A stretch of 64,000 bases of DNA from Candidatus Acidiferrum sp. (GCA_035506715.1 DATJOW010000017.1:14078-78077); one strand, 5' to 3'; positions 41,027 to 57,469 are shown, counted from the stretch's first letter. A program made the numbers and translations. Notes: generated by a model not told the origin, from the sequence alone.

Positions 41027-41842
41027 TCAGTATTTCTCCGGCACAAATCTCCGGCCTTTGAGCGCAGCCTGGTCATCATAGGCTTCCTTCATCGCTCGCT
41101 TCGGCAGCTTGATCTTCTCGCGGGGCACCTTCTGGTAGGGGACGAGTTTGAGCAAGTGGGCAATGCAGTTCAGGCGGGCGCGCTTTTTATCGTCCGACCG
41201 CAGGATGTGCCACGGGGCCCACTTGGTGTCGGTCGCTTTCAGCATCTGGTCGCGGGCGCGCGAGTACTCAAACCATTTGCTGCGCGACGGCAGGTCCATG
41301 GGACTGAGCTTCCACTGGCGCAGCGGGTCGGTAATTCGCGCCTCGAAGCGGCGCCGCTGCTCCTGGTCGCTGACTTCAAGCCAGAATTTGATGAGCTTGA
41401 TGCCGGCGTTCGTGATAAAACGCTCAACCACCGGGCATAGCTCGAGGAAATGCCGGTGTTGCTCCTTGCTGCAAAAACCCATCACGTGCTCGACCCCGGC
41501 GCGGTTGTACCAACTGCGGTCGAAGATGACGATTTCGCCGGCCGCCGGGAAATGCTGCATGTACCGCTGCATGTACATCTGGGATTTCTCGCGGTCCGAC
41601 GGCGCGGGCAGCGCAACGACGCGAAAGACGCGCGGGCTGACGCGCTCAGTGATGGCGCGGATAGTGCCGCCCTTGCCGGCGCCGTCGCGGCCTTCAAAAA
41701 TGATGATCACGCGCAGTCCTTCGTGTTTGACCCACTCCTGCAAATGGCATAGCTCCGCCTGCAACCGGCGCAGTTGTTTCTCGTATTTCCGGGCCTTCAA
41801 TTTTTCGGTACCCTTTGATTTTTCTCTGTTTTTTTTGCTCAT
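41027..41842 (-). CDS. ppk2: Polyphosphate kinase 2 family protein
   Basis: IIFEGRDGAGKGGTI Walker A, FDRSWYNR, lid region. 271 aa, single PPK2 domain. Confidence 0.9.
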   Translation of the reverse strand: MSKKNREKSKGTEKLKARKYEKQLRRLQAELCHLQEWVKHEGLRVIIIFEGRDGAGKGGTIRAITERVSPRVFRVVALPAPSDREKSQMYMQRYMQHFPAAGEIVIFDRSWYNRAGVEHVMGFCSKEQHRHFLELCPVVERFITNAGIKLIKFWLEVSDQEQRRRFEARITDPLRQWKLSPMDLPSRSKWFEYSRARDQMLKATDTKWAPWHILRSDDKKRARLNCIAHLLKLVPYQKVPREKIKLPKRAMKEAYDDQAALKGRRFVPEKY

Positions 41843-42409: not shown

Positions 42410-44395
42410 TTACTGGCGCATGACGGCAGGGGTCCCGGCCGGGGGAAACATCCGGATTAGCGCTTCCTGAACGGCCGGAACATGCAGGTTGCCGAGGTGT
42501 CCACCGGTGGGATAGACGGTGGCATTCGTGCCAAAGGTCGAGCGGAACCACTTGAAATCCGCCCGATTTAACAGGAAATCGTCCTGGCACACCTGGACTC
42601 GCACCTTGGGATTATTGGCGAGTGATGCCGTGTCCTGCGTCAGATCCGTGGCGGCGAGGAGCGCCTCCCGGTTCGTACCGCGTCCCGTTTTCACCAGGTA
42701 GGGAACCATGAATCGATCCATGTACTCGGCGTAGGAAATCCGGCGGATTTCGCGGTAGGAGGGCTGCCGGACAAACCGGTCCGGATCCACCTTGAGCACG
42801 CCCAGGTTGTCCCGTCGCTGGCTGTCCACAATGGCGCTCATCAGGGTGTAGCGGAAGGCCAGCCCGATGAGGAAACGGGACTCGTCGAGGCTGAGCGGAA
42901 TATTGCCTGACACATCAAGGCCATTCTGGGCCGAGGACTGCGTGTTGTCATCTGATTTTTCGCGGCCCTGGGCGGCAAAGTACAATGCCTTGTAGATGGC
43001 ATCCTGCATCCGTTGGCGCCGCTCAACCGCCGGCCAGTTCAAAGGCGCATTAAACAGGTCATCCAGATCTTCCAAGGCATCCGCCAGGCTCGTGGGCGGC
43101 TCCACGGCAACATAGCGGTCAAAACTCAGGCCGTTCAGCTCCCCGGCGGCTTCGCGGGCGGCGATCATCAAGGTAAAATAGCCCCCGTACGAAACTCCGC
43201 TCAGACTGGTTCCAGTGATCTTGTCCCCTTTCCGTTTCCGGAGGTCGGCCAGGACCAGCCGGAGGGCGTTGATCACGTCGTCGCAATCCGCCGGGCCATA
43301 ACCCGGAATCGCCATCGTTGAGCCGTGGTCCATGAACTCCTGCTGGAACGGATTCGAGAAGGTGACGACGGAATAGCCGCGCCGGTAGAGCATATCCGCA
43401 TAGGCCAGCGTGGAACGGTCCAATCGATAGGACCCCAAGCCGGGAAGATAGCACACCAGCGGCGCCGGCTTCTTCTGCATCCAGCAGGAGTAGGCCAGTT
43501 TTTTTCCGGTGGCCGGCACCCGCACTTTGTAGGTGTCCGCCTTTTCAGCAAACCGGGGTGTCTGCGGCTTGAAAAAAACCGCACCGACGGTTGGATCGGG
43601 CTTTTCGCCCGGTTCATAGCGCGGCAGGTAATCCAGGACCAGCCGCTGCCGGTTCAGCGAGTAGAGGGTGCGAATCGCCTGGTACGGATCCACCAGCGAA
43701 TCCAGTTGGCGTTTCAACTCGGGTGCCTGTCCGCTGAAATCATTGAAGGTGAATCCAGGCCGGAGCGCCATCGGCCAATCCTCATCGTCATAAGCAACCC
43801 CGATCCAAAAACAGATGTCCAACGGGAAATCCACAATCTTGCCCACGGCATCGCGTCCATTGCTGGGACCGATGACGGGGATCATCAGGTAGAACCAGGG
43901 TCCCGAACCCCAATGGCCGAGCGTCAGACCGAAATCCTGGTCGGACCGGCCGATCTTCCAATGGGTAGCGGGATCGAACAAGCCGCCGAGCCCGATGGTG
44001 GAATTGACGCCGAAACGTTCGGTTTCCTCCCAGGCGCCGCGCCACCTGCCCTGCAGACAGTTGTTCACCAGCCGGACCGGGTAGGTGAGATTGTGCCCGA
44101 CGTTGTAGATTCGTTTGCGGACCGGTTTGGGCGCGACCGTGCAGTACCCCACGCTCAGCGGGTAAATGACACCCCGGAACAGCACATCATTGAACGCCCA
44201 CGAGCAGCGGTTGAAACCCTCCAGCGGATCCGGCACCGCGTCGAAGTAAGGCATCTGGCCGGCGGCCAGTTGTGGCTCCGAATTGGTTGGCGCGGCAGTC
44301 TGTGCCTGGACCCTGATGCAGGTCAGGGTTGCTGCCACCGCCAAAGCAGCAAGCATGGCTTTGAGTGTGGTTGATTTCCGAACCTTGGCTTTCAT
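42410..44395 (-). CDS. Exported fusion of an MlaA/VacJ lipoprotein-like domain with an alpha/beta-hydrolase domain
   Basis: MlaA-like about aa 50-215 (DPLEGFNRCSWAFND, NLTYPVRLVNNCLQG, INSTIGLGGLFDPA). Hydrolase about aa 300-655 with a nucleophile elbow GVSYGG (Ser about aa 402, nt about 43190-43192) and a C-terminal GGHLGN His. Confidence 0.8.
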   Translation of the reverse strand: MKAKVRKSTTLKAMLAALAVAATLTCIRVQAQTAAPTNSEPQLAAGQMPYFDAVPDPLEGFNRCSWAFNDVLFRGVIYPLSVGYCTVAPKPVRKRIYNVGHNLTYPVRLVNNCLQGRWRGAWEETERFGVNSTIGLGGLFDPATHWKIGRSDQDFGLTLGHWGSGPWFYLMIPVIGPSNGRDAVGKIVDFPLDICFWIGVAYDDEDWPMALRPGFTFNDFSGQAPELKRQLDSLVDPYQAIRTLYSLNRQRLVLDYLPRYEPGEKPDPTVGAVFFKPQTPRFAEKADTYKVRVPATGKKLAYSCWMQKKPAPLVCYLPGLGSYRLDRSTLAYADMLYRRGYSVVTFSNPFQQEFMDHGSTMAIPGYGPADCDDVINALRLVLADLRKRKGDKITGTSLSGVSYGGYFTLMIAAREAAGELNGLSFDRYVAVEPPTSLADALEDLDDLFNAPLNWPAVERRQRMQDAIYKALYFAAQGREKSDDNTQSSAQNGLDVSGNIPLSLDESRFLIGLAFRYTLMSAIVDSQRRDNLGVLKVDPDRFVRQPSYREIRRISYAEYMDRFMVPYLVKTGRGTNREALLAATDLTQDTASLANNPKVRVQVCQDDFLLNRADFKWFRSTFGTNATVYPTGGHLGNLHVPAVQEALIRMFPPAGTPAVMRQ

Positions 44396-44440: not shown

Positions 44441-45229
44441 TCAAACTTTGCCGGGCGGCGGTTCCGCCGAGGGAGGCGGCGGGACAGGTGGCGGTTCCGG
44501 TTTGACCGTAATCGTGGCGGTCGGGGTTCCGGCAGTGGGAGGGTTGGCCGGGCCACCGGTCATGGAGAGGCTGATGGAAACCGGCATCATCCGCTCGGCG
44601 ACGGAAACGGTTTTCCAATTGAAGATGATCGCCAGCAGGCGGAACACAAAGGTGGCGCCAACGGCCATCAAGCCGGCCTTTTGAAAAGACCAATCGAGGC
44701 GCATCAACATCCAGGTAAACAGGCAGGCGCCCAATACTGCCCCCAGAACGTAGAGTTGCCCGGGCTTGAACAGCAATGGCTCTTCGCGGACCAGCACGTC
44801 GCGCAGCAAGCCGCCACCGGAGGCATTGATGACGCCGACCATGATCGCCGCCACGACGGACAATCCGGCATTGAGGCATTTTTCGACTCCGACGACGGCG
44901 TAGGCACCCAGCCCCAGCGCGTCTGCCAGCAGAAATACTTTTTGCAGACGGTCGATCCGACGGCTGAACGCAGCCGCCACGACGCACCCCGCCAAGACGA
45001 CGTATAGGTAACGCTCGTCCTGCATCGCCAGCGGCGGGCCGTTTTGGATGAAGATGCTGTCACGGATCAAGCCTCCTCCCAGGCCCGTCACCAGCGCCAG
45101 AACGAACAGGCCGACAATGTCATAATTTCGGCGGATGGCCACCAGCGCCCCGCTCAGCGCGTAAAGGAACGTGGCGCCGAGATCGAAGTAAATCGGCAGG
45201 ATAAACTGGCCTTTGAGTTCAACCGTCAT
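44441..45229 (-). CDS. TRIC / UPF0126 family cation-channel-like membrane protein with Pro-rich tail
   Basis: ATG at 45229 verified. Duplicated UPF0126 motif (LYALSGALVAIRRNYDIVGLFVLALVTGLGGGLIRD; second copy AAIMVGVINASGGGLLRD). Confidence 0.8.
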   Translation of the reverse strand: MTVELKGQFILPIYFDLGATFLYALSGALVAIRRNYDIVGLFVLALVTGLGGGLIRDSIFIQNGPPLAMQDERYLYVVLAGCVVAAAFSRRIDRLQKVFLLADALGLGAYAVVGVEKCLNAGLSVVAAIMVGVINASGGGLLRDVLVREEPLLFKPGQLYVLGAVLGACLFTWMLMRLDWSFQKAGLMAVGATFVFRLLAIIFNWKTVSVAERMMPVSISLSMTGGPANPPTAGTPTATITVKPEPPPVPPPPSAEPPPGKV

Positions 45230-45304: not shown

Positions 45305-46744
45305 TCAGAACAGCGAGTAAACCATGCCGGTCTGGACGCGCCAGACATCGCCATGGGCACCGTCGTTCTCTTCCTTGTAGCCGTAGAGGCATTCCAAGCC
45401 GACGCTGAGCCGTTTGCGGAGCTGCCAGACCAGGTTCCCGCTGGAATAATACGTTTTGTGGTAGGCGGCCCCGGTCTGGGCTTGCTCATTTTGCAGATCC
45501 ACGAAGCCGAACGTGGCGGTGGAACGGAACTTTTCCGACCATTGGTGCGTGTAACCGCCCATGGTGGCCAGGTACGTCAGCGACTGCAATGAACCGTCCG
45601 CGTTGTACGCTGCGTCGCCGCCGTTGAACCCGGTGTAGGTGAAGTTGTCGTTGCAGAAGGCGAAAATGCCCTGGCCGTAGGTGAACTGGGCCTGGACCGA
45701 GTCATGCTCGAAAACGTTTAAACTGGTGGACAGGTTCAAACCCCATCCCAAAACGTTCTGCTGACCGAGGGTCGGGCTGTTGGCGCCGATATCGCGCAGG
45801 ATGGTGGCAAACTGCACATGGCCCCACTTGGAGTCTTCCCAACGAACATTGAAGCCGCCATCCGGCAAATGGTTAACCGAGGAAGCGTCAGTGCCCGGTG
45901 TGCCGGCGGTATCAACCTGCGATGAGGGCTGCTGCACTCCGAAGTTTATCTGCCATCGATCATTGAGCGGCAGCATGTAGCGCACCGTCGCCTGCCGCGC
46001 AAAGATCATCGAATTCGGCCCTTCGAAGTCCACCGTGTCCGGCCAGACGTCCGGGTCTTCGAAGATGCTGTACGTGAAGCCGGCCGTGACATTGTAAATC
46101 TGGCCGTATAATTGTTTGAGGCGATAGGACATGCCGCTGCCGCTGCCGAAAAAGTCGTTGTTGTAGTAGAAGCGGAAGTCGCCCGGCATGTTGGGCGCCC
46201 GCACGTCCATGCTCAGGGACGAGCCCTTGGCGGTCATGTTGAACTGCTCGCCGCCACCGTATTGCGGGGTGTGTTCCATCGGGATGGTGGCGGTGACAAA
46301 CCGGTCCGGATTTCCGGAATTCTGGTTGTCCTCCATCATATCCACGCGCGGCTTCGCGTTGAACTTGATGAGGGCGTCCGTGTTGGGCACCGGGATGAAC
46401 CCCCGATATTTGGGATCAAGCGTGAGGTCGTTCAACCGCGGTGCGGCTTCCTGCATGTCGTTCATGTTGGCCCGGTCCGCCACGGGGCTCGGGTGCCCGA
46501 TGATGGGGTTGGTCGGCATGGCAAAATACACACCCTCACCGACGTTGGTTCCCGGCGCCGCGACCATCCCCCTCTGCTTTTCCAGTTCGGCAATTTTCTG
46601 CTGCATCTCTTCCATGCTTTTTTGCATGGCCTGCATGGCGGATTTGAGCTGGTCGAGCTCGGACGACTGGGCCGGCGCCGCGAGGACACCGGCGGCCATC
46701 AACGAAATGACCACGATTGAAGTTTTCATGGTTGCTGGTTTCAT
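45305..46744 (-). CDS. Outer-membrane porin with N-terminal coiled coil (DcaP-like architecture)
   Basis: Signal peptide, coiled coil ELDQLKSAMQAMQKSMEEMQQKIAELEKQ, alternating beta-strand pattern, C-terminal ...GMVYSLF with terminal Phe. Confidence 0.7.
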   Translation of the reverse strand: MKPATMKTSIVVISLMAAGVLAAPAQSSELDQLKSAMQAMQKSMEEMQQKIAELEKQRGMVAAPGTNVGEGVYFAMPTNPIIGHPSPVADRANMNDMQEAAPRLNDLTLDPKYRGFIPVPNTDALIKFNAKPRVDMMEDNQNSGNPDRFVTATIPMEHTPQYGGGEQFNMTAKGSSLSMDVRAPNMPGDFRFYYNNDFFGSGSGMSYRLKQLYGQIYNVTAGFTYSIFEDPDVWPDTVDFEGPNSMIFARQATVRYMLPLNDRWQINFGVQQPSSQVDTAGTPGTDASSVNHLPDGGFNVRWEDSKWGHVQFATILRDIGANSPTLGQQNVLGWGLNLSTSLNVFEHDSVQAQFTYGQGIFAFCNDNFTYTGFNGGDAAYNADGSLQSLTYLATMGGYTHQWSEKFRSTATFGFVDLQNEQAQTGAAYHKTYYSSGNLVWQLRKRLSVGLECLYGYKEENDGAHGDVWRVQTGMVYSLF

Positions 46745-46775
46745 AAATCAATTTCGGGTTGCAGGATTTTAAGGG

Positions 46776-47882
46776 TTACTTGAGCGAACCGAACAGGTCC
46801 AGGTCCAGTTCCCTGACGATGTAGTCAATCGCCTCGGTGGCCCGCACGCTGTTGCCGGCCTCGTTCACGGGAGGTGAAAATCCGACGACGGCCATTTTAC
46901 CCGGAACCACGGCGACAATGCCGCCGCCCACCCCGGTTTTGGCGGGCAGGCCGGCGTTGTAAGCCCAGGCCCCGGATTCATCGTAGAACCCCGCCATCAT
47001 CATCACCGCCAGAACGCGCGGCACATACTTCGAATCCAGGCAGCGCTCCTGGGTGATCGGGTTCACCCCCCCGTTGGCCAGCGTTGCGCCCATGACGGCC
47101 AGTTGTTTCGCGGTCACGCCGATGGAGCATTGTTTGGTGTACACATCGGTCGCCTCCGGCGGGTCACAGAACAGGTTTTCGTTGTTGTACAGGATCCAGG
47201 CGATGCCGCGGTTGCGGAAATTCGTGGCCGCCTCGGATTTGTAAACCTCGTCAATCAACTTGAGTTTCTCGCCGGCAAATTTGCTTTGATAGGCCAGAAT
47301 CTTCTCCCAGCGATCCTCGGGACCGTTGGCCTTGACCAGGCTGACCGACGCCATGGCCCCGGCGTTCACCAGCGGGTTGACCGCCTTGTTGTTGTGCATG
47401 CCCAGCGCCACCACCGAGTTGAACGGCATCCCGGTCGGCTCGACGCCGATTTTCTTGAACACCGCCTCTTCGCCGGATTCCTGCATGACCTGGGCCATGG
47501 TGAACACCTTCGAGCAGGACTGGATGGAGAAGGCGTAGTCAATGTCGCCGGCGCTGTACACTTTGCCGTCCGCGGTGACGATGACCACCGCGAACAGGTT
47601 CGACGGCACGCTGGCAAGGTACGGAATGTAGTCGGCGTTCTTGCCCGACTTGTCGTCTTTGAATTTGTTGTAGGCTTCTTCGACGACACGCTGCAGATCA
47701 GGCGTCGCCGAGGGAGCAGCCGCGGTTTGGCCTGCGGCCGGTTGGGCTGCAGACTTGTTGTTATGAACCTGGATACAACCAACCACGGCGAGCAGCGAAA
47801 CGACCAGCACGACTGCGCTCAGGTGGCGAAGGCTGAGTCCGGTTTTTTTAGTTTTCATGGTTGTGATCATGGTGGTTTTCAT
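46776..47882 (-). CDS. glsA: Exported glutaminase A (lipoprotein-type signal)
   Basis: YIPYLASVPSNLFAVVIVTADGKVYSAGD, FSIQSCSKVF (beta-lactamase-like SxxK), KTGVGGGI. Signal LSAVVLVVSLLAVVGC. The start is ambiguous (ATGs at 47918, 47882, 47870, 47858). Confidence 0.85.
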   Translation of the reverse strand: MKTTMITTMKTKKTGLSLRHLSAVVLVVSLLAVVGCIQVHNNKSAAQPAAGQTAAAPSATPDLQRVVEEAYNKFKDDKSGKNADYIPYLASVPSNLFAVVIVTADGKVYSAGDIDYAFSIQSCSKVFTMAQVMQESGEEAVFKKIGVEPTGMPFNSVVALGMHNNKAVNPLVNAGAMASVSLVKANGPEDRWEKILAYQSKFAGEKLKLIDEVYKSEAATNFRNRGIAWILYNNENLFCDPPEATDVYTKQCSIGVTAKQLAVMGATLANGGVNPITQERCLDSKYVPRVLAVMMMAGFYDESGAWAYNAGLPAKTGVGGGIVAVVPGKMAVVGFSPPVNEAGNSVRATEAIDYIVRELDLDLFGSLK

Positions 47883-47940
47883 CTTTGTAATCTTGGATTG
47901 GGATTTAATCTGGTTCATCAGCGGATCGCGACAGTAAGGC

Positions 47941-49005
47941 TTAATACTCCATAAAGTACTGCTGCAATTTCTTCGGGTCATTGGTCTTCATCAGGCCGAG
48001 CATCGCCAGAATGCGGGCCTTTTGCGGGCTCAATTCCATCGAGGTGATGAAACCCAGTTTGTCGTCGTCCACCTCGACGTTGCGCACCACCAGGCCGCTG
48101 CCGGTCCGGGTTGCTCGAACCACCAAAACACCCTTTTTGGCGGCGTCGGAAAGCGCGGCAATCACCGCGTCGGTGCTGTTGCCGTCCCCCACCCCCGCGA
48201 GCACGATGCCCTTGACGCCGTCCTTGACCAGGAAGTTCACGACCTCAGGCCCGACATTGGCGTAGGAATAAACAATCTCCACGCGCGGCAGGTCGTTCGT
48301 ACCCTTGCCGTCCACGGAAAATTCGCTCCTCGTGGTGTGCTTGGTGGTGTTGTGGTTGAAGAGATGGATCGTGCCCACGTTCATGACGCCGGCCCGGCCG
48401 CGATTGGGCGACTGGAAGGTATTGAGCGAAGTGCTGTTCATCTTCTGCGCCTCACGCGCATAGTGAATTTCGTCGTTGAGCACGACGAGCGGGCCGAGGC
48501 CGCGGGCATCCGGGCTCGCCGCGAGCGCGACCGCGTTGTAAAGATTCGCCGGCCCATCTGCGCTGGTCGCCGTGGCCGGGCGCATGGAACCGACGAGGAC
48601 CACCGGCTTGTCGCTGTGAACGACGAGGCTGAGAAAATACGCGGTTTCTTCCATGGTATCGGTGCCGTGAGTAATTACAACGCCGTCCACATCCTTGTCA
48701 GCCAGGACTTCGTTGACGCGTTTGGCCAGCTTGAGCCACACCTCGTGGTTCATCGTCTGGCTGCCGATGTTGGCCACCTGCTCCCCGCTCAAGTCGGCGA
48801 GATCGCCGAGGTGCGGAACAGCCTTGATGAGGTCATCCACCGAAAAGCTGCCGGATTTGTAGCCGACCTCGGTGGAGCTGGCCTGGGCGCCGGCGATGGT
48901 GCCGCCGGTGGCGAGAATTTTGATCTTGGGTTTGGCCTGGGCGGCGGTGGAAAACATCAAGGCCATCACCGCAACAAGGCACAGGAGGTATCGTGTCGTT
49001 TTCAT
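47941..49005 (-). CDS. ansB: Periplasmic type II L-asparaginase
   Basis: Signal peptide, then KIKILATGGTIAG (catalytic Thr), HGTDTMEETA, GVVLVVRATRTGSG. Confidence 0.9.
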   Translation of the reverse strand: MKTTRYLLCLVAVMALMFSTAAQAKPKIKILATGGTIAGAQASSTEVGYKSGSFSVDDLIKAVPHLGDLADLSGEQVANIGSQTMNHEVWLKLAKRVNEVLADKDVDGVVITHGTDTMEETAYFLSLVVHSDKPVVLVGSMRPATATSADGPANLYNAVALAASPDARGLGPLVVLNDEIHYAREAQKMNSTSLNTFQSPNRGRAGVMNVGTIHLFNHNTTKHTTRSEFSVDGKGTNDLPRVEIVYSYANVGPEVVNFLVKDGVKGIVLAGVGDGNSTDAVIAALSDAAKKGVLVVRATRTGSGLVVRNVEVDDDKLGFITSMELSPQKARILAMLGLMKTNDPKKLQQYFMEY

Positions 49006-49071
49006 ATTCAGTTCAATTTTGGTTTGCAGTTTGTTTTTGCCCGTTGGTTCACAATTTGAGTTCGCTGAAAT

Positions 49072-50721
49072 CTAGGCCGCCCGGCCTCTCTTTGAGGCCT
49101 TCCATTCCGTGACATAGGCCTGCGCCGCGGTGCGGAGGTATTGCCCGATCTTCGGATAGGTGTCTTCGGGGAGGTTGGCCAGCGAGACCCGCACGGACCA
49201 GTCTGGCCCGCCGAAGCCGCCGCCGTGCATGAGCACCACGCCGGAGTGCTCGGCCAGGCGGAAGAGCACGTCGGTGCATTCGTAGTTCTTCCGCAAAAAC
49301 CGCGCGAAATCCGGGCCGTACTCCTTTTCCGCCCACACCATCAGGTCAAGCTGGACGTAATAGGCGGCGCGGTCGCTGTCAGGCGGCAGCGTCAGGCCCA
49401 GGCCCTCGAACATCGCCTGAAACCGCCGACGCACGATGATCTGGCAAAGGGATTTGTAACTGTTGGCCGTGTCCAGCAGGGCGAACGTGGAGAACAGCGC
49501 CATCTGGATCTGCTGGGGCAACGAAAGGCCCGCGGTGTGGTTCAACGCCACCATCCGGCTGTCCGCCACCATGCGGTCGATGAACTTCACCTTGGCCGGC
49601 TCCAGCGTGATGGGGCTGTAACGATGATTCAGTCTGGCGCGGGTTTTGGCCGGCAGCTTCGCAATCATCTTGTCGAAGATGTTGTTCTGGTGGACGGCCA
49701 CCACGCCCAGGCGCCAGCCGGTGCACCCGAAATGCTTCGAGTAGGAGTACACGCCAATGGTGTTCTGCGGCAGCTCGGCCATGGCCGACCGGAAGCCCGG
49801 CACAAACGTGCCGTACACGTCATCGGTGATGATGATGAGGTCAGGCCGTTTCGTCTTGACGAGTTTGACCAGGCGCTGCATCGAGCTTTTGCGCATGGCA
49901 AACGACGGCGGGTTGCTGGGGTTGACGAGGAAGAACGCCTTGATGCGCTTGTCCTTCAGCTTGTCGATTTCCGCGTCGGCATATTGCCAGGTGTGGGCGC
50001 CGTTCTCGCGGCATTCGGAACTGGCGTCAAGGTTGACCACCTTGAAGGCAAAGCGGTCCATGTGCGCAATCTCAATGTAGGGCGTGAACGTCGGCACCGC
50101 CAGCGCGATGGTGTCGCCGCGATGCAACAGCTCGTTCTGCATCAGTGTATCGAAAATGTAACACATTGCCGCCGTGCCGCCTTCGACGGCAAAGATGTCG
50201 AATTTGCCCGCGGGCGGGCGGCTGTCGCACATTTCCTGGTCGAGGAATTCGTGCACGATGCGCTCGCAACAGCGCAACATCCGGTCGGGCACCGGATACA
50301 TATCGCCAATGATGCCATGAGTCAGTTCGTAGGCGAAGGCCTCGGCGTCGAACTTGAGCTTCTTGACGCCGTAATTCCAGGTGTCGCGGAGCAGCTTGAC
50401 GCCGGGCGCCTGGGGATTGGCGTCGAGGAAATCTTCAAACCGCGACGCCAGGCCGGGACTTTGGGCAATCTGCCTTCCCAGGTCGGGGATGTTGACGCCC
50501 CGGCGGGATTCTTCGAGGCCAAAGCGAAGGAGCGTTCCAAAGGCGTCGCGCGGCGTGGTGCAAATCCAGTTTGGATTGCCGCGACCGGCGTTGAGGAATT
50601 GGGCCGTTTGATCGCGCTCGGCCACCTGGGCGAGCTTGATCAGTTCATCTTTCAGTTCGAACGGGCTGAGTTTGAGCAGCGCTTTTTGATGTTCGCGCGT
50701 TGTGGAGGCTTTTATGTTCAT
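49072..50721 (-). CDS. asdA: Aspartate 4-decarboxylase (PLP-dependent)
   Basis: Strong resemblance to characterised AsdA: LSPFELKDELIKLA, LNAGRGNPNW, FAVEGGTAAMCYIF, VNPSNPPS, TDDVYGTF, YSYSKHFGCTGWRLGV, KFIDRMVADSRMVALNHTAGLS. Confidence 0.85.
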   Translation of the reverse strand: MNIKASTTREHQKALLKLSPFELKDELIKLAQVAERDQTAQFLNAGRGNPNWICTTPRDAFGTLLRFGLEESRRGVNIPDLGRQIAQSPGLASRFEDFLDANPQAPGVKLLRDTWNYGVKKLKFDAEAFAYELTHGIIGDMYPVPDRMLRCCERIVHEFLDQEMCDSRPPAGKFDIFAVEGGTAAMCYIFDTLMQNELLHRGDTIALAVPTFTPYIEIAHMDRFAFKVVNLDASSECRENGAHTWQYADAEIDKLKDKRIKAFFLVNPSNPPSFAMRKSSMQRLVKLVKTKRPDLIIITDDVYGTFVPGFRSAMAELPQNTIGVYSYSKHFGCTGWRLGVVAVHQNNIFDKMIAKLPAKTRARLNHRYSPITLEPAKVKFIDRMVADSRMVALNHTAGLSLPQQIQMALFSTFALLDTANSYKSLCQIIVRRRFQAMFEGLGLTLPPDSDRAAYYVQLDLMVWAEKEYGPDFARFLRKNYECTDVLFRLAEHSGVVLMHGGGFGGPDWSVRVSLANLPEDTYPKIGQYLRTAAQAYVTEWKASKRGRAA

Positions 50722-50741
50722 AGATTTGGGAGGGTATTGGT

Positions 50742-52469
50742 TTAGCGCATCATAACGACGATCACGGTTCCCCAGGCAATCAGGAGCACGTTGCCAAGAG
50801 CGTAGGGCAGGCCGTAACCAAGCGCGGGCACCTTGCTGTCGGCGGCTTCCTGCACCGCCAGCAGCGATGGCGTCGCCGTGCCCGCGCCGGCACAGGCTCC
50901 CAGCACGATCCCCGGATGCATTTTCAACAGAAAACGGCCGACGAGAATGGCAACGGTGTGCGAAATGAAAACAACCGCCAGGCAGACGAGGATGAGGCCG
51001 AAGCCGGCCTCCTTCAACCCCGTGAAAAACGCCGGGCCGGCGCTCAGGCCGACCACGGCGATGAACGCGTTCAGGCCGACGGAATCAAACAGCCACAGGG
51101 CGGACTCGGGAATGTGCCCAAAAACCGGGTAAACGGACCTCAGCCAGCCGAGCACCAGGCCCGCAAACAGTACGCCGCCACTCGTGCCCAGGCCGACAGG
51201 GATGCCGTGGACCGGCAACTCCTGCAGGCCCATCAGGCCGCCGATGAAAATGCCCAGCCCCACAAACACCATGTCGGTCATGCTGGTGGCCCGGTTGACG
51301 TAGCCCAAAACCCTGGCCGCGCGCTCGACATCCCGCTGGGCGCCAACCAGCGTCAGCGTGTCGCCGCGGTTCACCTCGGTGGCGGCGGTGAACGGCAGTT
51401 CGGTGCCGGCGCGGACAATTTTGCGCAGGATGACGCCATGGCTCATCAGCCGCCCCTGGTCGCTGATGGTCGCCAATTCGGCCAGGGTTTTGCCGCTGTA
51501 CTCCTTGTTGGTGACCACGACATCCAAAATGACCCCCGGGAAATCCAGCAGCTCCTTGTCCTCCACCTCTCCCGTCAGCGGGAAGTCCGGCGCCAGCAGG
51601 AATTCGCGCCGGGCGATGAGGGCCAGCACGTCGCCCGCGAGGATTTTCATCTGCGGCTCCGGCTCGAGGAGCTGCTCGCCCCGGCGGAGGCGTTGAACAA
51701 ACACGCGCCGGCCGGCCCCGTGCCAGCGCGCCTCGAATTCGGCGATGGTCTGGCCGGGAAGATCACCGCCGGGGACGCGATAGGCCCGGATGTCCCAGGC
51801 CCGGTAGGCCGATTGCACTCCGGGCGCATGGCTGGGCCCGCCGCCGGACATTTCCTGCTCCAGCTTACGGCATTCCTCCTTGAGGTTCACCCGCATGAGC
51901 AGCGGGCCGATGGCGGGCAGGAACCAGGCGGTGCTGATGGTCCCGAGCAGGTACGTGACGGCGAAAGCGATCGTCATCTTATCCACCAACTGGTCCTGGT
52001 CGGCCTCCGGCATGGACAGGCGATGGATGGCGTCGCCCGCCGTGCCGAGCGTGGCCGACTCGGTCATGGAACCGGCCAGCAGCCCGGCCGTGGTGCCGAT
52101 GTTGTAGCCCATGAGCCGCGCGGCGGCGAACGAGGTGCACAAGGCGGTCAAACACAGAACCACCGTGACCACCGCCTGGGGCAATCCCGTCTTCCGCAAT
52201 CCGCCGAAGAACTGCGGGCCGACCTTGTAGCCGATTGCGAACAGGAACATCAGGAAGAACACCGCCTTGACGTTCGGCGAGACGTCAATCTTCATCTGGC
52301 CGATCAGGACGCCGGCAATCAAAACACCCGTGACCGACCCGATGGCGAACGACCCGAACTTGATCCGCCCGATCAGGTAGCCCAGCGCCAGCGTCAGAAA
52401 GACCGCCAGCTCCGGGTGCTGTTGCATTGCTTTGATGAGCGGTTCCATGCTAATGGGAAAATCGGGCAA
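50742..52469 (-). CDS. aspT: AAE-family transporter, aspartate:alanine antiporter-like
   Basis: Duplicated YidE/YbjL-type membrane domains flanking two RCK_C/TrkA-C domains. Starts 7 nt after the upstream gene and lies 20 nt upstream of asdA, the classic aspT-asdA pairing. Confidence 0.75.
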   Translation of the reverse strand: MPDFPISMEPLIKAMQQHPELAVFLTLALGYLIGRIKFGSFAIGSVTGVLIAGVLIGQMKIDVSPNVKAVFFLMFLFAIGYKVGPQFFGGLRKTGLPQAVVTVVLCLTALCTSFAAARLMGYNIGTTAGLLAGSMTESATLGTAGDAIHRLSMPEADQDQLVDKMTIAFAVTYLLGTISTAWFLPAIGPLLMRVNLKEECRKLEQEMSGGGPSHAPGVQSAYRAWDIRAYRVPGGDLPGQTIAEFEARWHGAGRRVFVQRLRRGEQLLEPEPQMKILAGDVLALIARREFLLAPDFPLTGEVEDKELLDFPGVILDVVVTNKEYSGKTLAELATISDQGRLMSHGVILRKIVRAGTELPFTAATEVNRGDTLTLVGAQRDVERAARVLGYVNRATSMTDMVFVGLGIFIGGLMGLQELPVHGIPVGLGTSGGVLFAGLVLGWLRSVYPVFGHIPESALWLFDSVGLNAFIAVVGLSAGPAFFTGLKEAGFGLILVCLAVVFISHTVAILVGRFLLKMHPGIVLGACAGAGTATPSLLAVQEAADSKVPALGYGLPYALGNVLLIAWGTVIVVMMR

Positions 52470-52476
52470 TGATTAA

Positions 52477-55239
52477 TTATTTCTTCGCTTTCGCTGGTTT
52501 GCCGCCGGCGCCTTTCTTTTCGAGTTTCAACACCTTCAATCCCGCGGCGGCGTGGTAGCCGTGGATTTCCTTCACGTCCAGTTTGCGCATGAAGGTGATG
52601 ATTTCCGGGCTGATGACCTGGCCGGGCACCATGATGGGGAAACCGGGCGGATACGGGATGACGAAGTTGGCCGAGACCAGTTCTGGGCCTTTCTTCAACC
52701 GCTCATCAATTTCCTTGCCGTTGAGCTTGATGTGCTCGCAATTTTCCTCGTCGTAGGCCGCGTAGAAGGCCGCGCGCATGTCACCCTCGGGCGTCTTGCT
52801 CTTCGGATTGGCCCGGAACAAATCGTGATAGCGGCTGAAGTTCGGCAGGTCCGGCACTTCCTCGCAGAGCGACTTCACGCGCGCCTGGAACGTCTGCGCC
52901 TCCTCGCTCCGGGAGTTGGCCAGCCGCGCCTCGAGGTCGCGCGCGATGTCGGCCAGCACCTTGATCAGATAAGCGATGTCGCTCCGGGTGTTGTTGATGT
53001 TCGTCATCAGCAGGATCGTGTTGCGCGAGGTCTTGTTGATCTGGATGTCGAATTTTTCGGCGAGCAGGCCCTTGAATTGCGTGCCGTCGAAGCCGGCCGT
53101 GCCGCACATCAAGGTGAGCCGCGTCGGGTCCAGCGCAAACTCGTCGTTGTCCAGCGCTTCGATGGCCTCCTTCCAGGTGGAATGCGGCGGGCCGTAGTCC
53201 GCCAGGCCGCTGCCGCGCAGTTCCGCCGGTATCATTTCCGCCGGGGTCAGAATGCGAAAGTACTTCGAAATGAGCGGATGCGAGTTCACCTCGCGCCGCA
53301 GTCGGATGGCGAAACCCGTGTGCTTCATCACCAGCTCATAGCCTTCCAGCTCGGCCTGCCGGCGCGCGACATCGAGCGAGGCAAGGATCTGCTGGTTGGG
53401 CGAGGTGGAGGTGTGCGTAAAGAACGCCTCGTCGAACGGCTCCTCGACCGATTCGAAATCGTCGTCGTTCACCATGATCATGGATCCCTGGCGCAGTGAC
53501 GAAAGGGATTTGTGGGTGGATTGAGTGGCGTAGACGCGGATCCGCACCTTGTCCGGATCGGGCAGCAGATGGAGATCAAGCCGTTTCGGGTCGTTGGGCC
53601 CGAGCTGGGCGGCCTGCTTTTGGAACGCGGCGTATTCGGCCCGGTAAGCCTCGTCGCGATAGCGCGCCCGCAACGCGTCCGCGGCGGCCATGCCGGTGCG
53701 CCGGCGATGGAACGGCGAGAACCGCGCAAAACTGAACCAGGCCTCATCCCAGAGGAAAATGAGATCGGGTTTGATGGCGAGGCATTCCTCCATCACCCGC
53801 TTGGTGTTGTACAGGTGACCGTCGAAGGTGCAGTTGGTCAGGTCGAGCATCCGGACGCGGTCGAGCTTGCCTTCGGCCTTCAGGTCCAGCAGCGCCTTTT
53901 TGATCGTGCGCAGCGGCACGCCGCCGTACATCGAGAATTTATGGAGCGGAAACGCTTCCAGATAGACCGGCAGCGCGCCCGCCAGCACGCAACCGTAGTG
54001 ATGCGATTTATGGCAGTTGCGATCGATCAACACGATGTCGCCGGGCCGCAACAGCGACTGGACCACGATTTTGTTCGACGTGGAAGTGCCGTTGGTTCCG
54101 AAATAAACGCGCTGCGCGCCGAAACAGCGGGCGGCTTTTTCCTGCGCCTGTTTGATGTTGCCGGTCGGCTCCAGCAGACTGTCGAGACCGCCAGTGGTGG
54201 CCGATGATTCCGCCAAAAACAGGTTGGCGCCGTAGAACTGGCCCATGTCCTGAATCCAGTTGGATTTGAAAATGGATTTGCCGCGGGCGACCGGCAGGGC
54301 GTGAAAGGTGCCGATGGGCCGCCGGCTGTACTTCTTGAGCGTCGAGAAAAAGGGCGTGTCGTAGCGTTCGCTGACGCCTTCCAGGACGCTCAAGTGCAGT
54401 TCCATCAATTCTTCCACGTCGTAAAAGACGCGCCGGATATTTTTCGTGTCGAGCTGTCCCGCCAGCGACTCGACCGCGCGGTCGGTCAGCAGATAAACGT
54501 CGAGCTCGGGGCGGATGCCCCGGATGCCCTTGGCCAGCGTGGTGCCGTAGGCTTCGGGCGCCAGCGAATCGGGATCGACCGGCAGATGCTGGGCGATCTG
54601 GCTCCGAAACACCGGCAGGTTATAACCGGATCGCAAAGCGAATCCGTCATAAATCACCACGGCTTGGACGTTGAAATTGCAGATAACTCCGAGCGCGGCG
54701 TCCTCGAAGCTGGGCACGAGAACGATTTCGTAAATGAAAGGGTCTTCCGGCCGGCGCAATTTCCGGATTTCCTCGCGGATGCGTTTGGCCTGTTCGGCGT
54801 TGACGCCATCGCGCACCACGAGCACCTCGAAGTACGGGCGCGGCCCATCACCGGTCTGGAGATGCGCCGGCAGCGAGGGCAGAATTGTGTCCGCATTTTC
54901 ATCGTCCGTTTCCCACACGCTGGCGTCGTGGCGGTAGGAACCCCGCAGCAATGCCCGGCTGATGCGGTCGGTCAGCCGTGAGAAAGCGGCGAAATCCTCC
55001 TGCTTCAACAAGTCCCGCAACCGGCCGAACAGCTCCGGGCCGGGATACGCCCAGTAACTTTCGAGCGGCTCCAGTTCGGCGAGCAGTTGCGCAGCCTGTG
55101 AACGCAAATCCGCGGCGACCTTAGGCTGAGTGAGCGCCTTGGCCGTGTTGTGCAATTGCTGCCAGCGGTCCTGGCGGGCTTCGGTGGCACTGAAAAAATC
55201 CTTCAAATCGAGCGAGGTGGTTTTTGAGGCAGTGGCCAT
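52477..55239 (-). CDS. Large Orn/Lys/Arg-family (fold I) PLP-dependent amino-acid decarboxylase with receiver-like wing domain
   Basis: Wing-like YFEVLVVRD...IVLVPSFEDA, major domain with the PLP-Lys motif ATQSTHKSLSSLRQGS, C-terminal ANFVIPYPPGFPIMVPG. The ATG at 55239 is preferred over the TTG at 55245. Substrate unknown. Confidence 0.85.
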   Translation of the reverse strand: MATASKTTSLDLKDFFSATEARQDRWQQLHNTAKALTQPKVAADLRSQAAQLLAELEPLESYWAYPGPELFGRLRDLLKQEDFAAFSRLTDRISRALLRGSYRHDASVWETDDENADTILPSLPAHLQTGDGPRPYFEVLVVRDGVNAEQAKRIREEIRKLRRPEDPFIYEIVLVPSFEDAALGVICNFNVQAVVIYDGFALRSGYNLPVFRSQIAQHLPVDPDSLAPEAYGTTLAKGIRGIRPELDVYLLTDRAVESLAGQLDTKNIRRVFYDVEELMELHLSVLEGVSERYDTPFFSTLKKYSRRPIGTFHALPVARGKSIFKSNWIQDMGQFYGANLFLAESSATTGGLDSLLEPTGNIKQAQEKAARCFGAQRVYFGTNGTSTSNKIVVQSLLRPGDIVLIDRNCHKSHHYGCVLAGALPVYLEAFPLHKFSMYGGVPLRTIKKALLDLKAEGKLDRVRMLDLTNCTFDGHLYNTKRVMEECLAIKPDLIFLWDEAWFSFARFSPFHRRRTGMAAADALRARYRDEAYRAEYAAFQKQAAQLGPNDPKRLDLHLLPDPDKVRIRVYATQSTHKSLSSLRQGSMIMVNDDDFESVEEPFDEAFFTHTSTSPNQQILASLDVARRQAELEGYELVMKHTGFAIRLRREVNSHPLISKYFRILTPAEMIPAELRGSGLADYGPPHSTWKEAIEALDNDEFALDPTRLTLMCGTAGFDGTQFKGLLAEKFDIQINKTSRNTILLMTNINNTRSDIAYLIKVLADIARDLEARLANSRSEEAQTFQARVKSLCEEVPDLPNFSRYHDLFRANPKSKTPEGDMRAAFYAAYDEENCEHIKLNGKEIDERLKKGPELVSANFVIPYPPGFPIMVPGQVISPEIITFMRKLDVKEIHGYHAAAGLKVLKLEKKGAGGKPAKAKK

Positions 55240-55279
55240 AATCAATTTTTGGTCTTGGTTGTTGGTCGGTTCAAAATTG

Positions 55280-56971
55280 TCATTTCATCATCAAAATAAT
55301 CACCATGCCCCAAATGGTAAGCAGGGTGTTGCCGACGGCGTAGGTGACGGTGTAGCCCAGCGCTGGCACCTGGCTGCGACCCAGATCACAGATCAAACCC
55401 AGCGACGCCGTGGTCGTGCGCGCCCCGGAGACAATGCCCAGCGTGAGCGCGTCGTGGAAGCGGAAAAGGAACTTGGCGACGAGCATGCCCAGCACCAGGG
55501 GAAGGGTGGTCACGAGAGCGCCCCACAGGAACAAGCTCACACCCTGCGTCTTCAAGCCGTTGACGAAGCCCGGGCCGGCGGAAATGCCGACGATGGCGAT
55601 GAAAATGTTCAGCCCCACCGAGTTCATGAACCAGACGGTTGGGCTGGGAATGCGCCCGAAGGTGGGGCGCACCGACCGGAGCCAGCCTCCCAGGATTCCC
55701 GTAATGAGCGCCCCTCCGGCCGTGGACAACGTCAGCGGCACCCCCTTCACCTTGAGGACGAGCGCGCCCAGCAGCGCCCCGATCCCGATCCACGCACCGA
55801 TGAACGCGACATCCGCCACGTCGGTGGAATGATCCGGCACGCCCAGCAGCTTGGTGGCGGCATTGACGTCCTGGTTCCGACCCACCAGGGTCAGGATATC
55901 GCCCCGCTGAACTTTAGTATTGGGCAGGATGGGAATTGTTGTGCCGGTCGCCCCCCGCGTGATTTTCCGCAGGAACACCCCACGCGCCGCGGGCGCGTTC
56001 GCCAGCTCGAGAAGCGTCTGGCCATCGACGGCCTTGTTGGTTACGTAAACATCCACGCCTGACACCGGCACGTTCAACAACTCCGGGTCCTCGATTTCCT
56101 GTGCGCCTTCCCCGATCAATTTCACAAGCAGTTCACGCCGGCCGACAACCGCCACCACATCGCCTTCCTGTAACACAGTGTCCGCGGTGGCTTCCTCGAT
56201 CGTTCCGTTCCGGCGAATCCGTTGGACGAAGAGGCGCGCTTCCGGGAGCAGTGTTTCAGCCTCGACGACCCGGAGGCCGACCGCTTTCCCGCCGGTCTTC
56301 ACCCGGAACGCCCGCAGCTCAAACTGATGCCACGCGGAACCGGGTCCCCCCATTTCCTTGGTACCGCCGAATTTTTCCTCGTAGTCCCGGCAAGCCGCCG
56401 GCAGATCGATGCCGAGCAACTTGGGACCGAGCAAGGCAATAACGAGCGCCGAGCCCACGGTGCCGAACAGGTAAGTCACCGCGTACGCCACCGGCATCCC
56501 GTCGAACATCGCCTTGGTCTGGTCGGGCTCCAGCCCCAGCCGGTTGATGGCGTCGGTGGCGAGCCCCATCGACGCGGAGATGGTTTGTGAGCCGGCGTAA
56601 AGCCCCGCCGAGTAACCATAATCGTAACCGGCCATTTTGCAGACGACGACGGTAACAACCAGGCAGAGCACACACTGGACCACGGAGAAGAGCGCCTGCG
56701 GCACGCCGTCCTTGGCGATGCCGCGGACGAACTGCGGCCCAACTCCATAGCCAACGGCAAACAGAAACATCAGAAAAACAGTCGCCTTGAGGGGCGCCGA
56801 AATGGTAATCCCGATCTGGCCGATCAGGACGCCGGCCAACAGGGTGGCGGTGACCGACCCGAGGCCGATGCCCTTGAACGTGAATTTGCCAAAGTAGTAC
56901 CCGAGAGCCAGCGTGAGAAAGATCGCAATCTCCGAATATTCACGCAACGTGGCGAAGAACCAGGCAATCAT
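55280..56971 (-). CDS. Second AAE-family (AspT/YidE/YbjL-type) transporter
   Basis: Paralog of 50742-52469 (for example [25 protein letters not shown] and [16 protein letters not shown]) with two central RCK_C domains. Confidence 0.85.
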
Positions 56972-57306
56972 ATTTTACCTTTTTCCTTCCTTGCTTCCGG
57001 CTTGGTTAAACCGGCATTGTGGATTCCTCAATTGTCCAATCGGCACGCCGGCCAGCGGCTGGCCGGTGACCTTGCCAAGTCTGATTTTTCCCATCCTTAC
57101 ACCGCCCGGCAAAGTTCCCCGCGTCGCCAACAATGACATCACGGACTCAGGGGGAACATGAGCGGCCATTTGGCGTGTCAGGGCGATTCTGCCCGAACAA
57201 TGCCTCCCGGCGATCCGGTGATAATCGGTCGTCATTGTTTGTTGCGTGCGCGGGCTCAGTACCGAAGTTTCCTTCCTGTTTACGCGAACCAGTGCATGCC
57301 GGTCTA

Positions 57307-57322
57307 TTGGACTTTGGTCCAA
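57307..57322. promoter_or_regulatory. Palindromic operator candidate TTGGACTTTGGTCCAA upstream of the decarboxylase/antiporter gene array
   Basis: TTGGAC-N4-GTCCAA. On the minus strand it is followed after 24 nt by TAAACA. Counterpart of the site at 32996-33011. Confidence 0.5.
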
Positions 57323-57469
57323 GCCTAAGGTGCAGTATCAGTGCAATTTATGAAAATTCGTAGCCACACTTGGGACGGACAGCCTGAAAGCCGCCTTATG
57401 GCTAATAGCCCTTTCCCCGTCCTTGGCGGCAACTTGCGCTTCCACCATCCGGCAAAATGACGCGACGGG

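Follow-up and report, generated by a model that had tools for sequence, protein, structure and literature searches.

What would a bacterium gain from a single run of genes that encodes an outer-membrane porin, two exported amidases, two amino acid decarboxylases and two amino acid exchangers, and do these proteins act as one pathway? The question is raised by a locus at positions 45305-56971 of a 64,000-nucleotide (nt) stretch of DNA from Candidatus Acidiferrum sp. (GCA_035506715.1 DATJOW010000017.1:14078-78077), the whole of which is here called the window. LepA encoded in the window shares 95% identity with proteins from metagenome-assembled genomes (MAGs) of Verrucomicrobiia/Verrucomicrobiota, and the G+C content across the cluster is unremarkable. 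We propose that the locus probably encodes an envelope-spanning, two-armed precursor/product antiport-decarboxylation module of an uncultured wetland Verrucomicrobium, whose activities, substrate specificities, operon status and physiological role we infer from homology and gene neighborhood.

Open reading frame (ORF) calls on the window place seven consecutive minus-strand genes at exactly 45305-56971. With the leader and a further gene downstream, in the direction of transcription, the features are as follows.

56972-57469, minus strand: 498-nt non-coding leader 5' of the first gene, presumed from its position only to be a promoter or regulatory region
55280-56971, minus strand: AAE2, an AAE-family antiporter of 563 amino acids (aa); TIGR03802, 644 bits (cutoff 547)
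52477-55245, minus strand: DC, a long OKR-fold decarboxylase, ORF of 922 aa (PF01276); the product, P0001, has 920 aa from an ATG start at 55239
50742-52469, minus strand: AAE1, an AAE-family antiporter of 575 aa (568 aa from the ATG at 52448); TIGR03802, 626 bits (cutoff 547)
49072-50721, minus strand: AsdA, aspartate 4-decarboxylase; TIGR03801, 761 bits (cutoff 435)
47941-49005, minus strand: type II asparaginase; TIGR00520, 436 bits (cutoff 314)
46776-47981, minus strand: glutaminase A, longest ORF; NF009020, 490 bits (cutoff 395)
45305-46744, minus strand: DcaP-family porin (coding part taken as 45305-46729); PF19577, E 1.7e-16, 60.8 bits (cutoff 27)
44441-45229, minus strand: TRIC-family cation channel (UPF0126), the eighth gene; PF03458

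A preliminary description had set out seven consecutive minus-strand genes, at most 66 nt apart, and had named a family for each. Both the coordinates and the gaps proved exact, and all seven identifications were borne out by Pfam and NCBIfam profile searches, in which every one of the seven genes passes its curated cutoff. In gene order, the gaps measure 34-40, 7, 20, 66 and 31 nt; in addition, the longest glutaminase ORF seems to overlap its neighbor, running 41 nt across the stop of the asparaginase gene. To judge from where the signal peptide lies and how long the homologs are, however, the true glutaminase start is the ATG at 47882 (46776-47882), and the overlap would become a gap of 58 nt.

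Is this arrangement peculiar to the window? A metagenomic contig (L001), with a DC 81% identical to that of the window, has all seven genes in unchanged order, and then a PF03458 gene, between different flanks. A scan of 185,579 species genomes for DC yielded 80 loci in which the enzyme is 59-69% identical, with hosts in the Verrucomicrobiota, Acidobacteriota, Methylomirabilota, Binatia, Myxococcota, Gemmatimonadota, Xanthomonadales and Burkholderiales. Neighbors were counted in those 69 loci, drawn from 8 or more phyla, in which the sequence extends 2.2 kb or more beyond DC in each direction. An AAE gene lies directly adjacent to DC on the same strand in 61 of them, and an OprD- or DcaP-family porin gene shares the strand of DC in 54; AsdA is found near DC in 31, a TRIC-family gene in 18 (and also in most full clusters), a glutaminase in nine and an asparaginase in seven. 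Where no AAE adjoins DC (eight loci), seven have one at least one gene away on the same strand, the exception (L076) being a short contig. From these counts, therefore, the core unit is the long-form decarboxylase, an AAE exchanger and a porin, and the AsdA and amidase modules are add-ons.

A reciprocal metagenome scan, seeded with the glutaminase, gave 80 loci and showed how the add-ons are joined to the core. Among homologs of at least 70% identity, a DcaP-like porin gene lies directly 3' of the glutaminase gene in 28 of 29 loci. Every locus with the asparaginase also has AsdA (24 of 24), immediately upstream in 19. Wherever the flanks are visible, the glutaminase lineage is accompanied by a glutamate decarboxylase (GAD), and glutaminases at 60-69% identity directly adjoin a GAD gene. 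In eight loci (L085, L095, L099, L101, L104, L108, L109 and L118), the otherwise same cluster contains a canonical GadB-type GAD of ~465 aa and no long-form DC; the members scanned with TIGR01788 score 523-537 bits against a cutoff of 380. The canonical GAD occupies exactly the slot between the two AAE genes in L085, L099 and L101, and L130 has the same substitution on a contig without a visible asparaginase. Including the window, the set is complete in 22 loci, of which 14 have the long-form DC and eight a canonical GAD; these loci come from Verrucomicrobiota, Burkholderiales and unbinned metagenome contigs. The TRIC gene belongs to the conserved set as its co-directional eighth member. Because the same gene set is present in 21 other loci, the arrangement is far beyond chance; the seven-gene order, whose conservation the preliminary description had proposed to test, is identical in L001.

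What, then, does the large decarboxylase act upon? In the PDB, it matches Mycobacterium tuberculosis Rv2531c (9N0O/9N0N, E 6e-236). DC residues 23-906 align to residues 25-896 of the 947-aa Rv2531c with 47% identity over 862 aligned positions; the alignment takes in the extra N-terminal domain, and the four-domain long form is present in DC. Long-form enzymes, of about 920-950 aa, carry this additional domain before the response-regulator-like wing. Rv2531c is an L-glutamate decarboxylase according to knockout metabolomics, isotope tracing and reconstitution; it requires Mg2+, is inactive on Lys, Orn and Arg, and recognizes its substrate through a network of K406, T606 and R576, plus R718 and N731 (PNAS 2026, PMC13506015). 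Both catalytic and glutamate-recognition residues are conserved: H405, K406, K570 (which binds pyridoxal phosphate), R576, T606 and N731 of Rv2531c are kept in DC as H412, K413, K579, R585, T614 and N737, and S615 of DC is likewise conserved. R718 is replaced by K725, a conservative change that is invariant in 12 clade members. DC is accordingly placed in the Rv2531c subfamily as a predicted L-glutamate decarboxylase (Glu + H+ -> GABA + CO2, where GABA is gamma-aminobutyric acid).

The sibling clusters bear directly on this prediction. Since a canonical GAD takes the place of DC there, the non-orthologous displacement is strong genomic evidence that DC would decarboxylate glutamate and that the glutaminase would feed it. 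Rv2531c is described as a GABA-shunt enzyme, whereas DC of the window and its counterparts in 61 of the 69 other loci abut an AAE exchanger, and a precursor/product antiport role is therefore implied. Neither the PNAS paper (PMC13506015) nor the JBC structure paper on Rv2531c mentions an antiporter or the genomic neighborhood. On the aspartate side, AsdA scores 769 bits with NF006755 and matches the solved AsdA structures 2zy5 and 3fdd at E about 1e-146; its predicted reaction is Asp + H+ -> Ala + CO2.

Where would the amidases work? Export signals were read by inspection of the translated sequences. The asparaginase begins with a Sec signal (MKTTRYLLCLVAVMALMFSTAAQA/KP, ending ...STAAQA/KP) that is conserved in 6 homologs, and the enzyme is possibly a glutaminase-asparaginase. 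The glutaminase starts with a lipobox (LLAVVG/C), followed by a tether rich in Ala, Pro, Gln and Thr. Its close homologs have the lipoboxes FTGC or LTGC, and more distant ones, including those partnered by GAD only, have Sec signals. Every cluster-linked glutaminase or asparaginase examined bears a Sec or lipoprotein signal; the only glutaminase homolog without one, in L061, is encoded at a distance of 5 kb and on the other strand. The structure nearest to the glutaminase catalytic domain is Escherichia coli YbaS (1u60, E 1e-106), the glutaminase of glutamine-dependent acid resistance in that species (PMC3641589). Based on its N-terminal lipoprotein signal and tether, and on the signals of cluster-linked homologs, the glutaminase of the window is a predicted exported, lipid-anchored variant of YbaS/GlsA, not cytoplasmic as in the E. 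coli AR2_Q system. The exported amidases of the preliminary description thus find support in both enzymes, and its two parallel arms of deamidation, antiport and decarboxylation do so in the kinship with Rv2531c, the GAD substitution, the export signals and the co-occurrence of modules.

The assignment of an exchanger to each arm is more delicate. AAE1 and AAE2 both have two Asp-Al_Ex halves (PF06826 x2) with TrkA_C (PF02080), and AAE2 matches the solved structure of AspT at E 8e-49. AspT exchanges Asp(1-) for Ala(0) electrogenically (PMC9508256, PMC12462496); by phmmer, the Tetragenococcus halophilus protein is nearer to AAE1 than to AAE2 (206 vs 170 bits). With the L-Asp-site residues taken from PMC12462496, the AspT substrate-site residues T130, S132, Y167, L431, F434 and T496 are kept in both window proteins. 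Both have Thr for S498; AAE2 has Ile for Q131 and Gly for Arg76, and AAE1 has Glu and Lys at these two positions. Orthologs of AAE2, 73-82% identical, adjoin DC and/or AsdA in more than 20 loci. Across the loci, the following AAE clades and signatures were distinguished.

c1: TMS / SHS, Arg76; sole partner in AsdA-less genomes, e.g., Lysobacter; TIGR03802 about 400 bits, below the cutoff
c5 and c6c: TIS / TTT; AAE2 of the window is in c5
c6a and c6b: TES, Lys76; AAE1 of the window is in c6a (T-E-S / T-A-T)
c3: T[AEQ]T / TVA; second AAE in many full clusters

Full clusters nearly always have one TIS-type AAE and one AAE of another type. TIS-type proteins accompany DC alone in L019, L053 and L068, and are the sole AAE beside both decarboxylases in L071, L072, L118 and L130. 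Because asdA is directly downstream of AAE1, and AAE1 is closer to AspT and has a basic residue (Lys) at the Arg76 position, we lean modestly toward AAE1 as the candidate Asp:Ala exchanger and AAE2 as the candidate Glu:GABA exchanger, which matches the labels given in the preliminary description. Alternatively, AAE2 is a candidate for a shared Asp/Glu exchanger. An assignment of AAE2 (clade c5) as the partner of AsdA by synteny was withdrawn, as c5 is equally adjacent to DC and TIS-type AAEs occur with DC alone.

Two further observations concern the pairing of DC with AAE genes. In Xanthomonadales (Lysobacter, Pseudoxanthomonas, Noviluteimonas and relatives; L030, L032, L035, L038, L045, L051, L061-L064 and L069), DC and a c1 AAE form a minimal pair, often with an OprD-family porin. 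Cultured bacteria that possess DC together with an AAE include Lysobacter niastensis, Arenimonas daejeonensis KACC 14631, Pseudoxanthomonas koreensis KCTC 12208 and Variovorax jilinensis J22P168. In L082 (10001-14470, P0030), DC and AAE read as one protein of 1489 aa; this is likely an assembly indel, given other split genes on the contig, and it was not used as evidence.

The remaining two genes would serve the outer membrane and, speculatively, the charge balance of the cell. Inspection of the porin finds a signal peptide and then a heptad-rich helix. In an AlphaFold model built from 24 homologs (pLDDT 63), a signal helix and a second, long helix (residues 23-53) precede a beta-barrel. Its top fold match is Acinetobacter baumannii DcaP (6EUS, E 2.9e-20, TM 0.79), eight orders of magnitude better than general porins, the next match being at 2.8e-12; a search of the PDB with the porin sequence gave no match. 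The model thus suggests a DcaP-family outer-membrane porin with an N-terminal coiled coil, predicted to be trimeric. The TRIC gene has the two repeats of PF03458 (E 1.2e-37), and its product matches the solved prokaryotic TRIC channels 5wuf (E 3e-31), 5h36 and 5wuc. Directly after it, at 42410-44395 on the minus strand, is a gene for an exported protein of 661 aa with an MlaA lipoprotein domain at residues 55-250 and a C-terminal extension of ~400 aa; in other loci, this gene does not accompany the cluster.

Taken in sequence from the outside inward, the proposed pathway would run as follows. Amino acids would cross the outer membrane via the DcaP-family porin. In the periplasm, the Sec-exported asparaginase would convert Asn to Asp and NH3, and the lipoprotein-anchored, YbaS-like glutaminase would convert Gln to Glu and NH3; at low pH, the released ammonia would take up protons. 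The two AAE exchangers would then bring in Asp(1-) and Glu(1-) against neutral Ala and GABA, an electrogenic exchange. In the cytoplasm, AsdA (Asp + H+ -> Ala + CO2) and DC (Glu + H+ -> GABA + CO2) would each consume one proton. Overall, the cycle would provide pH homeostasis, a proton-motive force or both, as AspT/AsdA and GadC/GadB/YbaS do. The TRIC cation channel might balance charge, possibly as a K+ shunt, a speculative role drawn by analogy with the idea of a ClC shunt in the acid resistance of E. coli.

Several points weigh against the pathway as drawn. AAE1 and AAE2 both score as Asp:Ala "equivalogs" with TIGR03802, and neither belongs to c1, the clade that accompanies DC in AsdA-less genomes. 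Because several loci have a single AAE for two decarboxylases, a model of one transporter per arm may be too simple. The characterized DcaP porins of A. baumannii prefer di- and tri-carboxylates, and growth of that species on glutamate does not need DcaP1-3; in our loci, porins occur even in clusters without amidases. The sequence was found in three wetland metagenome DNA runs and in no RNA run. Finally, no promoter, terminator or riboswitch signal was identified at the cluster. Promoter and terminator scans gave counts at or below shuffled expectation and no site in any intergenic gap, and the 498-nt leader has no credible ORF, Rfam family, sigma-70 match or motif common to related loci. An Rfam scan of the whole window returned nothing above the gathering score, the one weak match in the leader being Chlorobi-RRM (E 0.11), and a tRNA scan of the window found none. 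The upstream regions of 6 related clusters likewise have no common 11-mer and no meaningful alignment. A LuxR-type response regulator flanks 21 of the 69 related clusters, but not the cluster of the window.

Could the cluster instead serve nutrient acquisition? In that case, the amidases would harvest NH4+ and acidic amino acids, the AAEs would act as uptake or overflow carriers, and Ala and GABA would be used internally (the latter through a GABA shunt, as for Rv2531c in M. tuberculosis), with neither antiport energy nor acid protection. One locus speaks for such an assimilatory route: in L102 (44-1165), an aspartate ammonia-lyase (AspA) gene precedes asparaginase-AAE-glutaminase-DcaP, and the 6.5-kb contig has no visible decarboxylase. 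However, this contig is short and its asparaginase is only 73% identical. The conserved set contains no gabT, gabD or alanine-catabolic genes, DC nearly always adjoins an AspT-family exchanger (the 61 loci counted above), and the glutaminase is of the YbaS acid-resistance type. The two decarboxylases and two exchangers, moreover, mirror known antiport cycles. We therefore regard the nutrient-acquisition reading as unlikely, though still to be reckoned with.

A second alternative would make DC an Arg, Lys or Orn decarboxylase that produces polyamines and has nothing to do with the glutaminase. Annotation favors it, as DC carries the Pfam OKR_DC_1 domain and its homologs are labeled "arginine decarboxylase" by JGI. 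Yet the NCBIfam models for Lys, Arg and Orn decarboxylases all fall far below cutoff on DC (201 vs 968 bits and similar), and Rv2531c, as noted, has no activity on these substrates. In alignment, the position of Arg585 is Ser in Hafnia alvei LdcI and an AdiA-type enzyme. The partner transporter of DC is of the AAE family, with no APC-type gene resembling CadB, AdiC or PotE among the conserved neighbor families, and a canonical GAD stands in for DC in the sibling clusters. We consider a polyamine-forming DC very improbable. Least credible of all is that the genes are neighbors by chance or separately regulated parts of no common pathway, as the missing recognizable shared promoter or terminator might suggest, given intergenic gaps of at most 66 nt, the presence of the set, between other flanks, in 21 further loci of at least two phyla, and the co-variation of asparaginase with AsdA and of glutaminase with glutamate decarboxylase and porin.

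If the locus is an antiport-decarboxylation module, how does it relate to those already known? AspT/AspD (AsdA) of T. halophilus likewise pairs an AAE exchanger of AspT architecture with aspartate 4-decarboxylase. The window differs in its Gram-negative setting, in the porin and periplasmic asparaginase upstream of the exchanger, and in interleaving a second exchanger and a second decarboxylase; its AAEs are only distant relatives of AspT (170-206 bits, phmmer), with R76, Q131 and S498 changed. The second comparison is with E. coli AR2/AR2_Q (GadA/B, GadC and YbaS/GlsA; PMC3641589, PMC6250119), which shares the conversion of Gln to Glu and NH3 by a YbaS-like glutaminase, the decarboxylation Glu + H+ -> GABA + CO2, and the exchange of GABA for substrate. 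In AR2_Q, however, the glutaminase is cytoplasmic rather than exported and lipid-anchored. The AR2 decarboxylase is GadB-type, whereas that of the window is an unrelated, long-form OKR-fold enzyme (sibling clusters do use a GadB-type GAD), and the AR2 exchanger is the APC-family GadC, whereas the window and sibling clusters have AAE proteins. The window also encodes a dedicated porin and a TRIC channel, and Pfam and NCBIfam scans find neither a GadB-type decarboxylase nor an APC-family GadC in its cluster. The cluster would thus be AR2-like in its working but is not, from its gene content, a member of AR2.

Periplasmic deamidation of Asn and Gln followed by uptake of the acidic amino acids is known from Pseudomonas (PGA/AnsB) and from Helicobacter and Campylobacter (AnsB and GGT). 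Products there are assimilated via ABC or DcuA/GltS carriers rather than traded for the products of a decarboxylase, and PGA or GGT, not a GlsA-type enzyme, supplies the glutaminase activity. Overall, the components and the underlying principle have precedents (AspT/AsdA, GadB/GadC/YbaS and deamidation in the periplasm). The novelty lies in their combination, in which a long-form GAD is coupled to AAE exchangers, the YbaS-type glutaminase is exported, a dedicated DcaP porin and a TRIC channel are encoded alongside, and the Asp and Glu arms are joined in one module found in at least two phyla. A literature search of incomplete coverage found no prior description of the cluster or of the pairing of AAE with a long-form decarboxylase.

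Other genes in and around the clusters deserve mention. A polyphosphate kinase (PPK2) gene lies at 41027-41842 (minus strand) in the window and recurs near clusters such as those of L050, L052, L071, L072, L082, L096, L113, L119 and L143; PPK2 is present in 15 of the 69 DC loci and in several glutaminase-seeded ones, and in Terriglobia (Acidobacteriota; L050 and L052) it is immediately upstream of AAE-AsdA-DcaP-DC. A polyphosphate tie to the cluster pathway is possible. In many genomes (L002, L013, L015, L037, L053, L056, L059 and others), DC/AAE clusters stand beside a triad of DUF3302, an HlyD-type membrane-fusion protein and an outer-membrane efflux protein (AaeAB-like; f13-f9-f3). Elsewhere in the window are three further minus-strand genes. 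A phosphoketolase (XFP) gene at 25646-28108 lies near an 809-aa fusion at 30479-32908 that unites a cyclic-nucleotide (cNMP)-binding domain, acetate kinase and a PduL-type phosphotransacylase (PTAC), an unusual three-domain protein of the acetyl-phosphate branch; the 777-aa ORF between them (28149-30482) has no Pfam match.

In summary, the adjacency of DC and AAE, together with the interchange of DC and GAD, offers independent, cross-phylum genomic support for the glutamate specificity of Rv2531c-type enzymes. The locus nominates Glu:GABA exchange for the AAE family, identifies an exported YbaS-type glutaminase, and suggests that a TRIC channel might contribute to pH and energy homeostasis driven by decarboxylation. 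More broadly, and with somewhat less than even confidence, we suggest that the AAE family includes true Glu:GABA exchangers that replace GadC and form, with DC or a canonical GAD, AsdA, two periplasmic amidases, a DcaP porin and a TRIC K+ shunt, a self-contained envelope-spanning module. Horizontally mobile between phyla, this module would convert Asn + Gln to Ala + GABA + 2 CO2 + 2 NH3 and provide acid protection and membrane energy for soil Verrucomicrobiota, Acidobacteriota and Burkholderiales. Cultured Xanthomonadales with the minimal pair are tractable hosts for the proposed Glu:GABA exchange. Finally, MAGs and contigs of uncultured Verrucomicrobiota, Acidobacteriota and Methylomirabilota, several of which derive from wetland metagenomes, commonly carry the module. 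In such habitats, it may thus matter considerably for acid tolerance and for Asn and Gln turnover, with release of NH3, GABA and alanine.

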